Source: a virus (taxonomy: Duplodnaviria > Heunggongvirae > Uroviricota > Caudoviricetes). Taken from it: a stretch of 5,698 nucleotides of DNA. How positions within the stretch are numbered: position 1 is the stretch's first letter; every line of letters starts with the position of its first letter. This document shows positions 1 through 5,698 of this stretch, piece by piece. A model generated the notes under the pieces. The model was given only the letters and a program-made list of their open reading frames with translations, did no database searches and had not been told where the DNA came from. Position numbers and translations under genes: made by a program. The stretch covers positions 1-5,698 of the IMG/VR virus record IMGVR_UViG_2778261176_000002. The stretch is one strand, 5' to 3'.

Positions 1-745
1 TCTCGCGCGGATTTGCAGGACTGGTGATGTTCTTGCCGAACATGCAGCCTTTCGCCGTCAGCGACCAGAATTTTTTGATGTTGTTAATCGCGGTACGGCT
101 GTATCGTTCGCGCTGCTCGACGATCCCCAGCTTCACCATCTGGTGATATGCCTGATTAGCCGTAAGGCGGATACCATACTGTTTCAGCAGTGCACTCAGC
201 GACAGCGTAGGGCGACTTGAGCCATCAGGCGCGTCAGCAGGAGCATCAATGGCATAGCGCGGTGCCAGATTCGGTAAGCCAACAGCCTCCTGGAGTTTCT
301 GACAGGCACCAAGCACTGAAGAGTTAGACAGGTTTAATTCCCGGCGCATAAAGTCCAGCAGAATCACACCAGCCTGCATCTTGTCAGCAGCCTGCCCGGA
401 TAATTTTTCCGGTGCGCTGGTTACCATATCGAAAGTACGGATCACCTTCAGATGGAATGCCGGGCTGATCCACATTGTATAGGCATACACCAGTTCCTTG
501 CAGACATACGTTCCCCGTTCATTTCCCCCATGAATCACACTCACCGGGTCAACACCCAAATTCTGGGTGTTGGTCAATTCATGAACAAGCTCAACAGTTT
601 GTTGGCTGGAAAGAAACTTTCCTGGCTCCTTGGTTCTGGCATTTGCACCAGATGCTACTGCTGCGCGATGCAGATCGTTCAGGCTGTAACGCCCATAAGC
701 ATCACGACGAACTTCAATACCATCAATGACCATCAGATTATTCAT
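1..745 (-). CDS. KilA-N domain protein (antirepressor/Bro-like); partial, C-terminus lies beyond the left window edge
   Basis: Hand-translated minus-strand frame starting at ATG 745-743 (MNNLMVIDGIEVRRDAYGRYSLNDLHRAAVASGANARTKEPGKFLSSQQTVELVHELT...GTYVCKELVYAYTMWISPAFHLKVIRTFD...) is open to position 1. The N-terminal ~110 aa fit the KilA-N DNA-binding domain pattern. A GAGGAG Shine-Dalgarno lies 8 nt upstream of the ATG. Not in the ORF track because the frame has no stop inside the window. Confidence 0.7.
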   Translation of the reverse strand, partial: MNNLMVIDGIEVRRDAYGRYSLNDLHRAAVASGANARTKEPGKFLSSQQTVELVHELTNTQNLGVDPVSVIHGGNERGTYVCKELVYAYTMWISPAFHLKVIRTFDMVTSAPEKLSGQAADKMQAGVILLDFMRRELNLSNSSVLGACQKLQEAVGLPNLAPRYAIDAPADAPDGSSRPTLSLSALLKQYGIRLTANQAYHQMVKLGIVEQRERYSRTAINNIKKFWSLTAKGCMFGKNITSPANPRE

Positions 746-764
746 ACTTCGTTTCTCCTCTTAA

Positions 765-1154
765 TCAGGCGGCTGCACCCGCCGTTTTCTCGTACTTACT
801 GATAGTGATCTCGACCTTCCCTTCCGGGATAACCGGTCCCCACTCCACCAGCATTCTTTTCACCTGACTGTCGTCTTCCCACACACCCGCGTGGGTCAGG
901 GCGTCAAACAGCGCCTTGTTATAGTTGTCCAGATCGCGGATCCGGTTATCCGGAGGAAACAACACGATCTCCACTGAAGCAGGTGCCGACGTTGGTTTTG
1001 GCAGACGACGTAACTGCTCAACTATTGCTGCACACGCCGCGCTCTGGAATTTGCGCCCCGCCGCGCTTATCAGGCTCTTACCAGCAAACGCCCCTTTGTT
1101 GGGGTGTCGCCAGTACGTGTTCACGCTGGGCGGGAAAGGCAGGATCAGCTTCAT
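765..1154 (-). CDS. rusA: RusA-family Holliday junction resolvase (crossover junction endodeoxyribonuclease)
   Basis: 129 aa ORF MKLILPFPPSVNTYWRH...RIRDLDNYNKALFDALTHAGVWEDDSQV... shows the N-terminal PxxNxxYR-like motif and the acidic RDLDN / DAL..AG.W.DD core typical of RusA. AGGGAGA Shine-Dalgarno upstream. Its ATG (1154-1152) overlaps a TGA at 1153-1151. Confidence 0.85.
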   Translation of the reverse strand: MKLILPFPPSVNTYWRHPNKGAFAGKSLISAAGRKFQSAACAAIVEQLRRLPKPTSAPASVEIVLFPPDNRIRDLDNYNKALFDALTHAGVWEDDSQVKRMLVEWGPVIPEGKVEITISKYEKTAGAAA

Positions 1155-1222
1155 GCCACCATCTCCCTGACCAGTTTTTCTGCCTGCTGGCGAACCTGCG
1201 CCAGAAAGGCCTCACCACATGC

Positions 1223-1804
1223 CTAAAGTTCATCGCGCCCGATGTAGCTGATTGCCGGTCCCTTCCAAGTCTTGTCAAAAACAGCAATAGCACCAGCGAA
1301 GAAAGCGCCTGTCGGCACCTGCTTCTCATCTTTCGGGATAAACCAGGCAGGCAGTTCAAAACCAATACGCCCGCGAATAAAAGCAATATGATCTGCATCT
1401 TCCGGCCACCACACTTCGCTGGTGGCAGCTTTGATCAGGAAAACATAGCGCCCGCCCTTATCACGCATGGCACTGGCATGCTTCATGATGTAACGCATGC
1501 CGGTGATGTATTGCCCCTCATGCTGACTGGCGCGACTGTATGGTGGATTGCCAAAGGCAGCACCTTTAAGCTCCGCAAGGCGTTCTGACCAGTCACGCGC
1601 CAGCGCGTTGTCTTCCGCCGTGTAATACGCGGCACATTTGGCATTATCACCGTCAGTGAACAGATCCAGAACAAATGGGCCAAACAAGGTGTTAATTCCC
1701 CAGAAAATGCTGTCCGGCGTGCGCCACTGATCGCCCACCTCCTTCAGTTCATGGGATGGTTTGTTCCGCAGCTCCACCAGCGCCTGACAATATTTATTAC
1801 TCAT
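1223..1804 (-). CDS. Phage Dam-type DNA N6-adenine methyltransferase
   Basis: Same frame as track ORF 1223..1849, but started at ATG 1804 (MSNKYCQALVELRNK...) rather than the upstream GTG. Contains the N6-adenine MTase motif IV NPPY (AFGNPPYS). Ends at TAG 1225-1223. A GGGGGC Shine-Dalgarno-like stretch precedes the ATG. Confidence 0.8.
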   Translation of the reverse strand: MSNKYCQALVELRNKPSHELKEVGDQWRTPDSIFWGINTLFGPFVLDLFTDGDNAKCAAYYTAEDNALARDWSERLAELKGAAFGNPPYSRASQHEGQYITGMRYIMKHASAMRDKGGRYVFLIKAATSEVWWPEDADHIAFIRGRIGFELPAWFIPKDEKQVPTGAFFAGAIAVFDKTWKGPAISYIGRDEL

Positions 1805-1896
1805 TAAGCCCCCACGTAAAAAGCATCCGCAATGTCTCCGGAAGTACACCCCGGATGGGCTTCAATGAATTTCTGAACTTCATTCAAAAGACTCAT
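1804..1896 (-). CDS. Hypothetical 30-aa mini-protein (MSLLNEVQKFIEAHPGCTSGDIADAFYVGA)
   Basis: ATG at 1896-1894 lies 2 nt after the initiator stop (TGA 1901-1899) and is preceded by AGGGGGTGA with 5-nt spacing. Its TAA stop (1806-1804) overlaps the methyltransferase ATG as TAATG. Too short for the ORF track; coding status is inferred from coupling and the RBS only. Confidence 0.35.
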   Translation of the reverse strand: MSLLNEVQKFIEAHPGCTSGDIADAFYVGA

Positions 1897-1898
1897 GA

Positions 1899-2840
1899 TC
1901 ACCCCCTGAATCCTGCCGGGATCTGGCTGTAGTCCACGTTGTCGTAACTGGCTTTGAAGTACGGATCTTCGCGTTTTTCTGTGTACGTGCTGACGGACGG
2001 CGATAAGCGCAGGGAAAGCTCATCCCATTTTTCCCGCAGCTTCGACGGGCTGAGCACGTTACGGCACCAGAACGGATCGCGGCTGACGCGGCTGTACATC
2101 TCGCAGATTTGTTTGTGAGTACGACCATCCTGCACACACATCAGGCGAATTTCGTTTGCCCAGGCTGTCCAGTTCGGTTCTTTGGGACGAACCACCTCGC
2201 CGTCACATTCGGCAGCCTGCTCGTACAGGGCGATGATTTTTTTCCAGAGCCACTGTGCGCAGGTCAAATCATCCTGCGTTCCCCACTGGCGCTTTTTAGG
2301 GCTGAATACAACCGCATCAGGATGGCGAGTTAAAAAATCCTGTTCAGCCTTCTGCGTGTCCGGTTGCGAAGCGCCCGGACGAGAAGGTTTTTTATCTGAC
2401 GGATCATGTTTTGATTTTACTGACGGATCCCCGCCAGATTCTGACGGGTGAAAACCCGCTTTTTTGCCAGATTTCGACGCATCAAATTTTGACGGGTCAG
2501 ATTTTGATGCGTCAGATTTTGACGGGTCAGAATCTGACAGTTGAGAAAATGCCGCTGCCTGAAGCTTCGCAACGTTAAGCTGATAAACATTCGACGCATT
2601 GCGGTTACCCTGGCGACGCGCCTTACGCGTTAACCAGCCTTCTGCTTCCAGCCGTGCGATAGCCGTTCTGACGGTACTCATCCCCGCGCCAATCTGGCGG
2701 GCAATGGTTTCAATTGATGGCCAGCACACACCTTCGTCATTACTGAAATCAGCCAGGCGGGCCATAATTGCTACGCTGGATAATTTCATGCCTGACGCTG
2801 CGCAACCATCCCATACATAGCCGGTTAATTTAGTGCTCAT
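1899..2840 (-). CDS. Phage replication initiation protein (lambda O-like role): N-terminal winged-HTH, low-complexity linker, DnaT/primosome-like C-terminal domain
   Basis: 313 aa ORF. N-terminus [13 protein letters not shown]...SIETIARQIGAGMSTVRTAIARLEAEGWL reads as a wHTH. The central linker (SDSDPSKSDASKSDPSKFDASKSG...) is encoded by an iteron-like repeat array. GAGG Shine-Dalgarno 6 nt upstream of ATG 2840. Confidence 0.8.
   Translation of the reverse strand: MSTKLTGYVWDGCAASGMKLSSVAIMARLADFSNDEGVCWPSIETIARQIGAGMSTVRTAIARLEAEGWLTRKARRQGNRNASNVYQLNVAKLQAAAFSQLSDSDPSKSDASKSDPSKFDASKSGKKAGFHPSESGGDPSVKSKHDPSDKKPSRPGASQPDTQKAEQDFLTRHPDAVVFSPKKRQWGTQDDLTCAQWLWKKIIALYEQAAECDGEVVRPKEPNWTAWANEIRLMCVQDGRTHKQICEMYSRVSRDPFWCRNVLSPSKLREKWDELSLRLSPSVSTYTEKREDPYFKASYDNVDYSQIPAGFRG
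2394..2540. repeat. Iteron-like direct repeat array inside the initiator gene; putative phage origin of replication
   Basis: About eight copies of a TGACGG(G/A)TCA-type motif at ~15-16 bp periodicity. The best units are three tandem 15-mers ATTTTGA(C/T)G(G/C)GTCAG at 2486-2530, plus ATTTCGACGCATCAA at 2471-2485 and degenerate copies at 2394-2456. The core TCTGAC-GG-GTCAGA is itself a dyad. Placement inside the initiator linker mirrors ori-lambda inside gene O. Confidence 0.6.
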
Positions 2841-3009
2841 GACCGACCTCTATTTCCCTGAATTTACGACGAAACTGTTCGAGCGGACTGAAGCACTCAT
2901 GCTCATAGCCTTCGCGGAGGTAGATAACCCGTTGTGTTTCCGGCTCCCAACGAATGACTCTGACGGGCACTCCGTAGTGATCTTTGAACCAGCGGTTAAC
3001 TTGTTGCAA
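2830..3009 (-). CDS. Hypothetical small protein (59 aa, TTG start): (M)[58 protein letters not shown]
   Basis: Found by hand-translating the minus strand in the frame offset from track ORF 2850..3188. Strongly protein-like sequence. AAGGAG Shine-Dalgarno at 3023-3018 sits 8 nt upstream of TTG 3009-3007. TAA stop at 2832-2830 overlaps the initiator start by 11 nt. No ATG in this frame downstream of the TGA at 3039-3037. Confidence 0.4.
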
Positions 3010-3188
3010 AGGACTGTCTCCTTCTGCCGGTTGAAATCACCCACAGCCCACTCTGCAAAGCTGTGGGTTACAATTTCCCTGTCACCTGGTACATTCACTG
3101 CATAGCAATACTCCACCTTCGCTTTTCCACCCGGCACAGGAAGCGCAATCAGTTGCGAGCGACGGTAGTGTGTTGTTAAACTGTTCAT
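2850..3188 (-). CDS. Hypothetical protein in the frame coupled to the cII-like gene; likely genuine only in its N-terminal part (about 3188 to 3040)
   Basis: ATG 3188-3186 overlaps the cII-like stop as ATGA; GGAGAA lies ~10 nt upstream. The N-terminal ~50 aa ([52 protein letters not shown]) look protein-like. The C-terminal part (…[24 protein letters not shown]) looks like an out-of-frame read of feature 2830-3009. Confidence 0.3.
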
Positions 3189-3826
3189 GCGTTAGTTTCT
3201 CCACAACCAGAAGCAATCGACGCCACGACGCCCGGAGCTGCACACTCGCGGGCGTTACTCTTTTCCGGCGCACAAAAAACACGAAATAACAGTGTTAAAT
3301 GCTCCTGCCACTTCGCCATTACTTGGTAGCTGTTCTCTTCGATTTGCTCACGCTCAGCCTGATCAATAACTCCATCAGCAGTTGCCTTACGTAAGTACTG
3401 GGAATGCTTGCCAATCCATTCTATTGACTCCATCAGCCGCTGATTAATGTCACCATTGTCAATGTCATCAATGACCACCAGCGGCACAAACACCCCATTA
3501 CTACGACGGGCTATTGCATCCGTTACATGCCTGGTACCACTGGCATCCTGTAAAACCATGGCCCACTCGAGTGGAAAAATTTGATCCCCACCGCTACGCA
3601 GTCTGTTATGCAATTGATCTTTTGCTGGGGTGATATCATCAGATTTATACAAACCAAGAATTTCTGCTGCTTCCTCATAGCCATGAGGTAAATCAGCAAT
3701 CGTTCTTCGTATTGCTGCCACCAGCCATGCTGGCTGTTTATCAACTTTCCATTCAGGTTCTTTACCCACGTTTAAGTCCTCATATCTGTGGTTTCTGTAA
3801 ATCGATTTATCCATTAGATTTTTCAT
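3185..3826 (-). CDS. cII-like lysogeny-establishment regulator (possibly Phage_CP76 / cII-type family)
   Basis: Same frame as track ORF 3185..3883, started at ATG 3826 ([13 protein letters not shown]...); ATG 3814 is an alternative. Sits immediately after the cro-like gene, overlapping its stop, which is the cII position in lambdoid phages. The central segment [24 protein letters not shown] resembles, from memory, the conserved F-P-E-W-L-D block of CP76-type CII proteins; this was not verified by search. No good Shine-Dalgarno, so start may depend on coupling to cro. Confidence 0.55.
3190..3266 (+). ncRNA. Putative oop-like antisense RNA covering the 3' end of the cII-like gene
   Basis: Candidate sigma70 promoter on the + strand: TTGCGA (3153-3158), 18-nt spacer, TAAACT (3177-3182). 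The predicted start is near the cII-like stop and a + strand intrinsic terminator lies at 3228-3266, giving a ~75-nt transcript antisense to the last ~80 nt of the cII-like gene. This matches the lambda pO/oop arrangement. Hexamers are weak (4/6 each). Confidence 0.3.
3228..3266 (+). terminator. Rho-independent terminator-like hairpin with U-rich tail on the + strand (antisense, inside the cII-like coding region)
   Basis: Stem ACGCCCG+GAG (3228-3237) pairs with CTC+G+CGGGCGT (3245-3255) with one bulge; 7-nt loop; followed by TACTCTTTTCC. The reverse complement on the minus strand has no U tract, so the element is + strand specific. Confidence 0.4.
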
Positions 3827-4007
3827 AAAGCTCAGGTTTAAATGGCAACCGTCCGCAAGTTCTATATGCAGCCTCTGCTGCACGTCCTTTTGGAATTAAC
3901 TGGCCAGGACGGTTTCGCCACTGATAAACGGCTTCAGTTGTTATGCCGAAAAAAGCAGCAACTTTCTCAATGCTGCCGAAGTAGCTTTCGATATCGTCAG
4001 TCGTCAT
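3807..4007 (-). CDS. cro: Cro-like HTH repressor (YdaS/Cro family)
   Basis: 66 aa ORF divergent from cI. HTH segment SIEKVAAFFGITTEAVYQWRNRPGQLIPKGRAAEAAYRTCG matches the Cro/YdaS-type pattern. GGAGGG Shine-Dalgarno 4 nt upstream of ATG 4007-4005. Confidence 0.8.
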   Translation of the reverse strand: MTTDDIESYFGSIEKVAAFFGITTEAVYQWRNRPGQLIPKGRAAEAAYRTCGRLPFKPELYEKSNG

Positions 4008-4018
4008 ATGCCCTCCAA

Positions 4019-4035
4019 ACTAAGTTTTGTTAGAT
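4019..4035. promoter_or_regulatory. Operator-like dyad ACTAAGTTTTGTTAGAT (CTAA-N7-TTAG)
   Basis: 17-mer differing at only 2 positions from the site at 4797-4813 on the other side of cI. Overlaps the -10/+1 region of the candidate cro promoter. Confidence 0.5.
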
Positions 4036-4067
4036 CTTAATTATCAATCTATCTTAGGTCAATAAAA

Positions 4068-4083
4068 ACTAAGATTACTTAGT
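4068..4083. promoter_or_regulatory. Operator-like dyad ACTAAGATTACTTAGT
   Basis: Perfect 6-bp inverted arms ACTAAG / CTTAGT around a 4-bp centre; same CTAA-N7-TTAG geometry as the other sites. Lies just upstream of the candidate pR -35. Confidence 0.5.
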
Positions 4084-4104
4084 AATTAAAGAAATGGTGC
4101 TCCT

Positions 4105-4731
4105 ATGGAAACAGTTGGTCAGCGTATAAAAGCTCTGAGAAGGGTTACCAGAACGTCCCAGAAAGAATTGGGTAAATTTTGTGGAGTAAGTGACGTTGCT
4201 GTGGGGTACTGGGAGAAAGACATCAATGTCCCTGGTGGGGAAGCACTTTCAAAATTAGCGAAGTTCTTCAATACGTCAATAGATTACATTCTTTATGGTG
4301 CTGAGTTTGAAGGCAAACTCGTCACAAACATGCGCAGAGTTCCTGTAATCTCGTGGGTGCAGGCTGGGCAGTTTACTGAGTGCAGGACAGCAGAAGTGTT
4401 TAGTGAAGTAGACAAGTGGGTAGATACATCATTAAAGATTGGTGATAACTCATTTGCATTGGAGGTTAAAGGCGACTCCATGACTAACCCTAATGGCCTC
4501 CCAACAATACCAGAAGGCGCAACAGTGATTGTAGATCCTGATGCAGAACCCCGGCATGGAAAAATAGTCATCGCTAGACTTGATGGAACAAACGAAGCCA
4601 CAGTAAAAAAATTAGTTATCGATGGCCCTCAAAAGTTTTTAGTGCCATTAAATCCCCGGTACCCCAACATCCCGATCAATGGTAATTGCCTCATCATTGG
4701 TGTAGTCAAAGGAGTTCAATACGAACTCTAG
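4105..4731 (+). CDS. cI: CI-type prophage repressor: N-terminal XRE-family HTH, C-terminal S24 (LexA-like) autopeptidase domain
   Basis: 208 aa. HTH: TSQKELGKFCGVSDVAVGYWEK. Ala-Gly cleavage-site context VQAGQF. Ser nucleophile in KGDSMTNP and general-base Lys in ATVKKLV, all spaced as in LexA / lambda CI. Divergent from the cro-like gene. Confidence 0.9.
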   Translation: METVGQRIKALRRVTRTSQKELGKFCGVSDVAVGYWEKDINVPGGEALSKLAKFFNTSIDYILYGAEFEGKLVTNMRRVPVISWVQAGQFTECRTAEVFSEVDKWVDTSLKIGDNSFALEVKGDSMTNPNGLPTIPEGATVIVDPDAEPRHGKIVIARLDGTNEATVKKLVIDGPQKFLVPLNPRYPNIPINGNCLIIGVVKGVQYEL

Positions 4732-4751
4732 CTCCCCCTTTTCTCTAACCA

Positions 4752-4781
4752 AAACACCGAACTAAGAAAAGTTTGGTGTTT
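4752..4781. repeat. Inverted repeat AAACACCGAACT-aagaaa-AGTTTGGTGTTT immediately downstream of cI
   Basis: 12-bp arms with one G/T mismatch (G-U in RNA) and a 6-nt loop, 21 nt after the cI stop. Contains a CTAAG half-site. AT-rich stem and poor U-tract make it an atypical terminator; it could equally be a protein-binding dyad. Confidence 0.4.
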
Positions 4782-4785
4782 CCTC

Positions 4786-4814
4786 TTGCTATTAAAACTA
4801 AGTTAAGTTAGATT
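4786..4814 (+). promoter_or_regulatory. pL-like early promoter candidate: -35 TTGCTA, 17-bp spacer, -10 TAGATT
   Basis: Hexamers at 4786-4791 and 4809-4814 on the + strand, pointing into the gene at 4920. The spacer and -10 are overlapped by the operator-like 17-mer at 4797-4813. Confidence 0.4.
4797..4813. promoter_or_regulatory. Operator-like dyad ACTAAGTTAAGTTAGAT (oL analogue)
   Basis: 15 of 17 positions identical to the site at 4019-4035. Located downstream of cI where the lambda-type map places oL/pL. Confidence 0.5.
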
Positions 4815-4919
4815 TTATATCAAAGATAACGAACAGGCAGGACGCCCACGAAGTAGCCCGCCCGGTACGTACGAAGACCGGGATGATTCGTTAGCGGATG
4901 ATTTCAGTGGAGAGAATAG

Positions 4920-5228
4920 ATGAATGAGCAGGATTTGAAGCATGTGATCGCATTGTTGCTGGAAGACGCTAAACGTTTACAGCAGATAGAGCCAAATGCA
5001 GGCACTGAGGCCCGTATTTTGTTAGCAAAACAGGCATTAAAGACTTGCGGGGCGCAAGACCCTGATCGAACCAAGTTCATGAATTTCATGGCTAACACGA
5101 TCACCCCCCTGCCATGCAATGGAGAGAGGGTGAGCCGTGTTTATCACGACACAATGGTTAAGGCATTAAGAATCGAGCTTGATGGGCTTAGGCGTAAGAT
5201 CGTGATGAACAAAATCGTTGCCAACTAA
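4920..5228 (+). CDS. Hypothetical protein, first gene downstream of the pL-like region
   Basis: 102 aa ORF (MNEQDLKHVIALLLEDAKRLQQIEPNAGTEARILLAKQALK...VKALRIELDGLRRKIVMNKIVAN) with GGAGAG Shine-Dalgarno 5 nt upstream of the ATG. Predicted largely helical. No recognisable family and no arginine-rich N-terminus, so it does not look like lambda N. Confidence 0.6.
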   Translation: MNEQDLKHVIALLLEDAKRLQQIEPNAGTEARILLAKQALKTCGAQDPDRTKFMNFMANTITPLPCNGERVSRVYHDTMVKALRIELDGLRRKIVMNKIVAN

Positions 5229-5507
5229 GGAAGCAGACGGAAGTAAGCATGCGCTTTGTTCAAATTTGCAGACAAATATATTTGCGTCAACACCAGCACT
5301 GTTAGCAATGGAAAAAGTTTGATCAAGGATTTGTTGGCAGTTCATTGTGCTTTTGAGGATATATCCCTCTGGAATCAGTCTGCAGCAGCTATCGTCAGAC
5401 TCTTTGATTGTTTTCTGGTACAGAAAGTTAAGCATTAATTCTTCAAATTTTTTGGTCTGTTCGGCTGTTGCTTCAAACAGACGAACGTGAACATAAAACT
5501 GGTTCAT
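5166..5507 (-). CDS. Hypothetical protein, convergent with and overlapping the 3' end of the 4920-5228 gene
   Basis: Same frame as track ORF 5166..5543, started at ATG 5507 (MNQFYVHVRLFEATAEQTKKFEELMLNFLYQ...) because AAGGAA lies 6 nt upstream; ATG 5543 has only a poorly spaced GGTGG. Codon usage looks E. coli-like (CGT, CTG, GAA, CAG, AAA). No recognisable family. Confidence 0.5.
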   Translation of the reverse strand: MNQFYVHVRLFEATAEQTKKFEELMLNFLYQKTIKESDDSCCRLIPEGYILKSTMNCQQILDQTFSIANSAGVDANIFVCKFEQSACLLPSASLVGNDFVHHDLTPKPIKLDS

Positions 5508-5698
5508 TAGGTTTCCTTGCTGGCTGTGTGAGAACTCCAGCATACCACCGAGCCTGAAGTGGTGAAAAGACAGGCAATAGTTTCATTGCTGTGTGTAGTC
5601 TTGGCGCTACCAGCTTGTACCCTTGCTTCCGGCTGGTACCGTCCTTTTTACAAAACAGAGAAGAGCATCACCGGACGACGGGCTCATAACCCAATCCA

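Follow-up and report, generated by a model that had tools for sequence, protein, structure and literature searches.

Introduction

How many genes lie between the cII-like regulator and the replication initiator of this phage DNA, and in which frame are they read? The question is raised by positions 2830-3188 of a 5,698-nucleotide (nt) stretch from a virus of the Caudoviricetes (IMG/VR record IMGVR_UViG_2778261176_000002, positions 1 to 5,698), and this whole stretch is referred to here as the window. Two frames of the minus strand look coding in this segment. One is ymfM, known from the e14 prophage of Escherichia coli K-12, and the other, in the adjacent frame, encodes a small DUF4222 protein from a TTG codon. 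A first-pass annotation of the DNA listed three options for this arrangement and chose none of them, namely a 1-nt indel in a single gene, a programmed -1 frameshift, or an independent TTG-initiated gene, making two deeply overlapping small genes. The last of these stood up to comparison with relatives, and the other two did not. We consider the segment to be, very probably, a genuine and conserved same-strand dual-coding region with two real overlapping genes. As far as the sequence goes, neither gene appears to be damaged and no recoding site appears to be involved.

Two genes in two frames of one strand

The open reading frames (ORFs), starts, stops and Shine-Dalgarno (SD) sequence were checked on the minus strand, and every coordinate of the first-pass annotation was right. 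The elements of the locus are as follows, with the start of ymfL as called by the Prokaryotic Genome Annotation Pipeline (PGAP).

3185..3769, minus strand: ymfL, a cII-like regulator of the Phage_CP76/YmfL family (NF041471, E 1.3e-53), whose mechanical ORF reaches upstream to 3883
3185..3188, minus strand: junction at which the ymfL TGA (3187-3185) overlaps the ymfM ATG (3188-3186) as ATGA
2850..3188, minus strand: ymfM, 112 codons plus TAG (2852-2850), equal to K-12 b1148 and matching phrog_1170
3009..3188, minus strand: YmfM N-domain, codons 1-60, overlapped by no other gene
2853..3008, minus strand: ymfM tail, codons 61-112, in the +1 frame of DUF4222
3018..3023, minus strand: SD sequence AAGGAG of DUF4222, 8 nt before the TTG
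2830..3009, minus strand: DUF4222 gene, TTG start (3009-3007), 59 codons plus TAA (2832-2830)
2841..2852, minus strand: ymfM stop TAG with the 9-nt gap to the replication-gene ATG

The first frame therefore starts at ATG 3188, coupled by ATGA to the ymfL stop, and is open to TAG 2852-2850, as had been described. The second was likewise found to be closed by TGA 3039-3037, to have AAGGAG before TTG 3009, and to hold no in-frame ATG; in the window it is stop-free for 9 codons upstream of the TTG. The DUF4222 frame is -1 relative to ymfM, which is the same as saying that ymfM is in the +1 frame of DUF4222. The two starts are 179 nt apart, and the two genes overlap out of frame across 157 nt.

Profile searches give each frame an identity of its own. 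The second frame is a full-length DUF4222 protein, covering positions 1-52 of 53 in PF13973 with 69.5 bits (cutoff 27, E 1.8e-19). No Pfam or NCBIfam profile matches the ymfM frame, which does match phrog_1170 over its full length (1-112 of 112, E 7.5e-70). PHROGs keeps these as two separate families, phrog_1170 (112 amino acids (aa), ymfM) and phrog_1343 (59 aa, DUF4222). The protein cluster nearest to YmfM (P0001) is 96% identical. The e14 prophage of K-12 MG1655 (1203822-1204180; our locus L004) carries the same 112-codon ymfM ORF, b1148, annotated as 'cell division inhibitor YmfM', together with the same second frame. The gene order is the same, and the K-12 protein differs from that of the window at 4 residues, all of them in the tail.

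Conservation of the layout across genera

Relatives were gathered in two sets. The first viral-contig scans gave only near-identical E. coli loci, and these (155 e14-type loci from the viral collection, representing 64 distinct haplotypes) were used as a population check and not for divergence. The diverged set consists of 48 loci from a sampling of one genome per species, two of which (L181 and L212) are cut by a contig end. Its genera include Escherichia, Citrobacter, Enterobacter, Kosakonia, Kluyvera, Pantoea and Phytobacter.

In all 155 e14-type loci, the segment that begins with the ymfM ATG and ends with the DUF4222 stop measures exactly 359 nt. Among the 64 haplotypes, ymfM is intact in every one and DUF4222 in 63, and all have the TTG start. 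The two-frame layout is seen across at least 10 genera.

DUF4222 is an independent, constrained gene

The DUF4222 homologues all begin at the same aligned Met. In the 48 diverged loci the start codon is mostly ATG, with GTG in a few, and TTG occurs only in the e14 type; in other genera the start is preceded at 8-11 nt by a GGAG(G)-type SD. The shared start residue and the full-length domain support the suggestion that this is an independent gene nested in ymfM. The median pairwise ratio of nonsynonymous to synonymous divergence (dN/dS) is 0.11 at a dS of 1.45, and DUF4222 is thus under strong purifying selection. AlphaFold2 gives a confident model (predicted local distance difference test, pLDDT, 83.6), in which the predicted fold is a small Tudor/SH3-like beta-barrel. 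The 3' end of the gene overlaps the start of the replication gene by 11 nt.

The minimum-energy fold of 3007-3024 (minus strand) pairs the DUF4222 SD (GAAGGA) with UCCUUU, whose last two bases are already part of the TTG. Such a hairpin could tie DUF4222 initiation to ribosomes that translate ymfM; the RNA fold around the start is not significant (z -0.62).

The N-domain and the tail of YmfM

YmfM is made of two unlike parts. In the N-domain, e14-type polymorphisms comprise 21 synonymous against 8 nonsynonymous changes, and this part is a normal constrained protein under purifying selection. AlphaFold2 models residues 1-65 as three strands plus helices with a pLDDT of 55-72 and residues 68-112 as disordered with a pLDDT below 40 (52.6 for the model overall). 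The tail is rich in serine, threonine, alanine and glycine and is nearly without amino acid constraint, which bears out the first-pass remark that the second half of this frame is not conserved as protein. Within the overlap, amino-acid-level purifying selection is found in the DUF4222 frame (dN/dS 0.11), and what is found in the ymfM tail is stop avoidance and a compositional bias. The first-pass annotation had proposed that homologues in which only one frame is conserved at synonymous sites would show the other to be non-coding. Only DUF4222 is indeed conserved, but the verdict is misleading, as the ymfM frame is kept stop-free.

Compared with synonymous resamples conditioned on an open frame, the tail has more serine, threonine and small residues and fewer hydrophobic ones in 47 of 47 loci. 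We rejected this bias as evidence of tail function; it is inseparable from a preference for C-ending codons. At single sites, even though other safe synonyms exist for both, DUF4222 Asn5 is AAC in 25 of 25 loci and Val28 (window 2926) is GTT in 28 of 28 loci with an O-type replication gene and in 44 of 45 distinct sequences overall; Val4 sits at window 2998. The invariant wobbles of Asn5 and Val28 give an invariant Thr and Leu, the only sign that particular sites of the tail are constrained.

Stop codons are avoided in the ymfM frame

The wobble base of DUF4222 is the middle base of the ymfM codon. When a Leu, Val or Ile codon of DUF4222 precedes an A or G, a synonym ending in G or A would make TGA, TAA or TAG in ymfM. 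None of the 209 codons at risk in this way uses a stop-making synonym; all 209 end in T or C. At harmless DUF4222 sites with the same amino acids, 28% of codons end in G or A, and in neighbouring genes the stop-making codon is used in 27.9% of the same dicodon contexts (Fisher 6e-29, uncorrected for phylogeny). On a neighbour-joining tree the at-risk wobble positions toggle between T and C at least 23 independent times and never change to a purine. Taking single-linkage clusters as independent, the probability is 10^-6.7 for 7 clusters at 80% nucleotide identity and 10^-22 for 20 clusters at 85%. The ymfM frame is, in short, actively kept free of stop codons.

The same is seen at the level of whole frames. 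None of the 48 diverged loci interrupts the +1 frame of DUF4222, which runs from at least 170 nt upstream (the two truncated loci show only the last 68 nt) to a stop at +157 to +163. In 42 of them the third frame meets a stop at +5 to +23. A +1 frame open over 52 codons has a chance of 0.075 by synonymous resampling of DUF4222 with local codon usage, and measured on neighbouring genes 8.3% of 52-codon windows have one. A within-gene permutation of synonymous codons (mean P 0.45) was set aside as uninformative because the DUF4222 codon pool is already depleted of stop-making codons. The open frame persists though the upstream N-domain falls into at least 3 types, which are remote homologues (hhalign probability 95.5% between types 1 and 2 and 89% between types 2 and 3), and though the replication genes that follow are of several unrelated types.

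The 3' end and the replication gene

The place at which the ymfM frame ends is conserved as well. In 35 of 45 loci, with any type of replication gene, the gap between the stop of the ymfM frame and the ATG of the replication gene measures exactly 9 nt. It is purine-rich and SD-like, reading TAG-AGG... in the window and TAA-AGGA... elsewhere. In the window the TAG at 2852-2850 runs into an SD-like AGAGG (2851-2847), 6 nt before the ATG at 2840, and the DUF4222 TAA at 2832-2830 falls inside the replication gene. Given the ATGA at 3188 at the other end, the operon reads as a chain of putatively coupled cistrons with DUF4222 nested in it.

The module of YmfM and DUF4222 precedes at least 5 unrelated replication-gene N-termini among loci L165-L212, including MTSRPIVINPDL, MSRIFDIVQS..., MNTLIQLLDRP... 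and MKANLMKKNS.... These replication genes each start within ~20 nt of the ymfM-frame stop, so a mosaic recombination joint appears to lie there.

More distant relatives

A further set, made of viral contigs related to Providencia rustigianii protein P0212, shows that the modules can be arranged in other ways. In one clade (L239 and L257-L262) an N-domain ORF reads through DUF4222 in the +1 frame. In another, the upstream gene occupies the other frame and ends at +5 to +8, and in several members it bears a YmfM-like 'FVEWLVGDFN' motif. Here (L215-L233) the +1 frame begins with an ATG of its own at +7, which overlaps the upstream stop as TAATG or ATGA, and it is open to +172 or beyond, with a chance of 0.01-0.04. 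The encoded peptide of ~55 aa is hydrophobic, with a transmembrane-like first half (e.g. MKTQIILIGCIWISVVFVFASYVM). Additionally, one phage, of Entomohabitans teleogrylli (L265, KQ947383.1), has at 2001-2237 a stand-alone 78-aa homologue of the YmfM N-domain that overlaps the start of an O-like gene. It looks like a deletion derivative, keeping the first tail residues (CSQLT...). The N-domain and DUF4222 modules can exist apart, and the second frame is found in two forms, fused and as a cistron of its own.

Why the ymfM frame stays open

We propose the following mechanism. Translation of ymfM would begin at the ATGA junction with ymfL, yield a folded N-domain of ~60 aa, and continue for 52 codons through the DUF4222 gene in its +1 frame. 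DUF4222 would be made separately, by initiation inside ymfM at an SD and TTG of its own, and it is the product that carries the amino acid constraint. The wobble position of DUF4222 is the second codon position of ymfM, and the tail would therefore be a fast-drifting, disordered and overprinted extension, on which selection acts mainly to keep the frame uninterrupted. Ribosomes entering at ymfL/ymfM would travel without terminating to a stop embedded in the SD of the replication gene. This transit would link translation of the early operon to the replication initiator and avoid polarity. Tentatively, we favour such translational coupling and polarity avoidance as what keeps the frame open, and we infer it, as we do the translation of both frames in vivo. 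A more general proposal is rather unlikely in our judgement: that across the DUF4222 family the +1 ORF is obligatorily translated, its peptide drifting and selected for the act of translation, by which ribosomes would be carried from the cistron of the cII-like gene or YmfM N-domain to the start of the replication initiator. The +1 ORF is fused to the N-domain in e14-type phages and is a separate ATGA- or TAATG-coupled cistron in others.

Several observations weigh against this picture of two translated frames, one of them kept open for coupling. Translation of DUF4222 terminates at that same point, so the ymfM frame is not strictly required for coupling to the replication gene. The tail is essentially unconstrained, with a fourfold-site difference of 0.52 in DUF4222 and 0.57 in the O gene; 25 e14-type variants in the overlap are synonymous in DUF4222 and nonsynonymous in ymfM, and 4 go the opposite way. 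The tail is polar here and hydrophobic in the P0212-like clade, and it may therefore have no function as a peptide. Among the distant relatives, the L234 type has a TGA at +106 in the +1 frame, forced by a Met-Ile pair, L238 has four stops in that frame, and in the Entomohabitans phage DUF4222 is missing beside the N-domain. As for the statistics, the P-values treat sequence clusters as independent, and the deficit of ymfM nonsense variants within the population is not significant by itself (P ~0.08, at low power). No paper was found with both 'ymfM' and 'ribosome profiling', and the translation of either frame is read from sequence comparison.

Alternative explanations

The geometry of the frames would also suit a single ancestral gene of ~118 aa split by a 1-nt mutation or sequencing error, and rare fused variants do occur, but the comparative data have already refuted this reading and leave it next to no probability. 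The identical 359-nt layout in the 155 loci and its recurrence in the diverged loci speak against it, as do the 1904 E. coli records that cover at least 80% of the query region, mostly at 95% identity or more. One uninterrupted ORF colinear with both parts, which the first-pass annotation had named as the mark of a simple indel, is found in 0 of 64 haplotypes and 0 of 48 diverged loci. Fused proteins of YmfM N-domain and DUF4222, of 102-152 aa, are found only as small clusters in public assemblies (P0031, P0053, P0059, P0065 and P0090). Each has its own junction position, as would be expected of sporadic indels or assembly errors; the 14 member sequences of one cluster, P0065, suggest that one natural fusion allele or more may be in circulation. 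A programmed -1 frameshift within 3036-3010, joining the N-domain to DUF4222 in a trans-frame protein of ~118 aa, would agree with the -1 relation of the frames, with the 9 open codons upstream of the TTG, and with the fusion-type proteins of 118-119 aa (P0059 and the 14 members of P0065). It is nonetheless very improbable. An X_XXY_YYZ heptamer is absent from the ymfM frame of the window and from 37 of 47 loci, and the rest carry heptamers at scattered, non-homologous positions, so that no motif is conserved. In several diverged loci a stop codon in the DUF4222 frame lies 0-6 nt ahead of the start, and the homologues share one Met start with its own SD. An Rfam scan found no element around the DUF4222 start, where the RNA structure is also not significant, and the junctions of the database fusions differ as they would among sporadic indels.

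If the second frame is neither an error nor a recoded extension, two other accounts of the overlap have to be weighed. Downstream of 3009 only DUF4222 might be real, with ymfM a protein of ~60 aa whose frame runs on by a chance lack of stops. The absence of amino acid conservation in a low-complexity tail, the PGAP annotation of DUF4222 only, and the ~8% of such windows that are open by chance all fit this account. It is improbable in view of 48 of 48 loci being open despite a dS of ~1.45, the 0 of 209 risk codons that are unsafe against a background of 27.9%, the 23 independent wobble changes that all went to safe bases, and the conserved stop 9 nt before the replication-gene ATG. A more serious possibility, though still a doubtful one, is that the tail is a functional, disordered and polar C-terminal extension of a division inhibitor, in which length and composition matter and the exact sequence does not. 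This would explain the composition of the tail in 47 of 47 loci and the invariant Asn5 and Val28 wobbles, and it would accord with the filamentation caused by expression of the whole ymfM ORF and with the +1 ORF keeping its own ATG where the N-domain is not fused. Yet the synonymous divergence of DUF4222 equals that of its neighbour (dS 1.45 against 1.48 in the adjacent O gene), the composition is confounded with C-ending codon preference, the tail of the P0212-like clade is hydrophobic, the N-domain of the Entomohabitans phage has only a short tail, and residues 68-112 are modelled at very low confidence. Between coupling and a function of the tail, the comparative data cannot separate the two; coupling is the reading we favour.

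The surrounding region and its distribution

The window covers the immunity and replication genes of an e14/SfII-like lambdoid prophage. Its further features are these.

1899..2840, minus strand: O-like replication initiator (HTH_36) with its ATG at 2840 (phrog_391, E 2.4e-135)
3807-4007, minus strand: cro-like gene
4105-4731, plus strand: cI-like repressor

A query of 601 bases around 2830-3188 matches 2688 E. coli records, with top matches 99.3% identical, and 1904 records span at least 80% of it, the majority at 95% identity or more. The locus is found in 2679 of 5426 complete E. coli genomes, or about half. The top matches lie in lambdoid prophages of e14/SfII type and in isolated phages, among them vB_EcoM-720R4, SfII and SfIV.

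Within the O-like replication gene, at window 2468-2531, lie ~4.3 tandem copies of the 15-bp unit CAGATTTTGACGGGT, which encode a repeated SDPSKSDASKS stretch. The repeats look like iterons, which suggests that the initiator gene contains a replication origin, as it does in lambda.

Implications for ymfM and its annotation

Current annotations of the locus each show half of it. PGAP, the RefSeq pipeline, read from a locus 99.3% identical to the window (L001), calls the 59-aa TTG gene and no ymfM; K-12 and several phage records call ymfM and no DUF4222. The comparative data indicate that both frames are maintained, so every current annotation of this locus lacks one of the two genes.

This bears on a reported function. 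YmfM has been proposed as the SOS-associated division inhibitor SfiC, and expression of the K-12 ymfM ORF has been reported to cause filamentation and inhibit division; the ymfM fragment was cloned in pBAD24, and a ymfM deletion was also used to argue for SfiC (Ansari et al., bioRxiv 10.1101/2020.11.19.390815). In earlier library screens, the recovered fragments ran from ymfL through ymfM to ymfN. By its coordinates, the cloned ymfM ORF holds the DUF4222 SD, the TTG, ~55 of the 59 codons and the whole predicted barrel, and a ymfM knockout would remove both genes. As the constructs would thus contain both ORFs, the published experiments, with both in the expressed or deleted fragment, do not say which polypeptide is the one that blocks Z-ring formation. 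Under coupling, the division-inhibiting activity attributed to 'ymfM' would sit in the N-domain or in DUF4222; if the +1 ORF were selected for the act of translation, SfiC could be the nested Tudor-like DUF4222 protein or the 60-aa N-domain alone. No paper mentioning the second frame was found in the literature on ymfM, DUF4222 and out-of-frame remodelled gene families.

Comparison with known systems

The closest counterpart is ymfM of K-12 e14, the same 112-aa ORF in the same place between ymfL and the O-like gene; the difference is that the literature treats ymfM as a gene with a single product. PF13973/phrog_1343 matches the nested gene over its full length, with the same length and the same position just upstream of the replication-gene start and overlapping it. 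The family description is silent on a second frame, whereas here and in nearly all relatives the +1 frame is open and apparently selected.

Small prophage division inhibitors offer a functional parallel, namely Kil of lambda, KilR of Rac and DicB of Qin (Ansari et al., 10.1101/2020.11.19.390815). Like the inhibitor ascribed to ymfM, they are small prophage proteins of ~50-110 aa from early operons, and their expression blocks Z-ring formation; no sequence or family relation to them emerged from the Pfam, NCBIfam and PHROG scans.

In architecture, a comparable system is Rz/Rz1. In lambda, Rz1 is embedded out of frame in Rz, and across phages the pair occurs in embedded, overlapped and separated forms; both products are constrained, functionally characterised and interacting. 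The likeness lies in same-strand out-of-frame genes of a lambdoid phage, in a nested gene with its own SD and start, and in an architecture that varies by phage, fused and embedded here and split into cistrons in the P0212-like clade. The differences are that only one frame is constrained at the amino acid level in the present overlap, that no interaction of the products is known, and that the YmfM/DUF4222 module belongs to the early replication operon and not to a lysis cassette. Out-of-frame overlap is well known in phages, and here it occurs in a heavily studied K-12 locus, as a systematic gap in annotation. For the evolution of overlapping genes the locus is a clean natural example: one frame bears all of the amino acid constraint, the other is kept from closing despite saturation at synonymous sites, and the module exists in both fused and split architectures.

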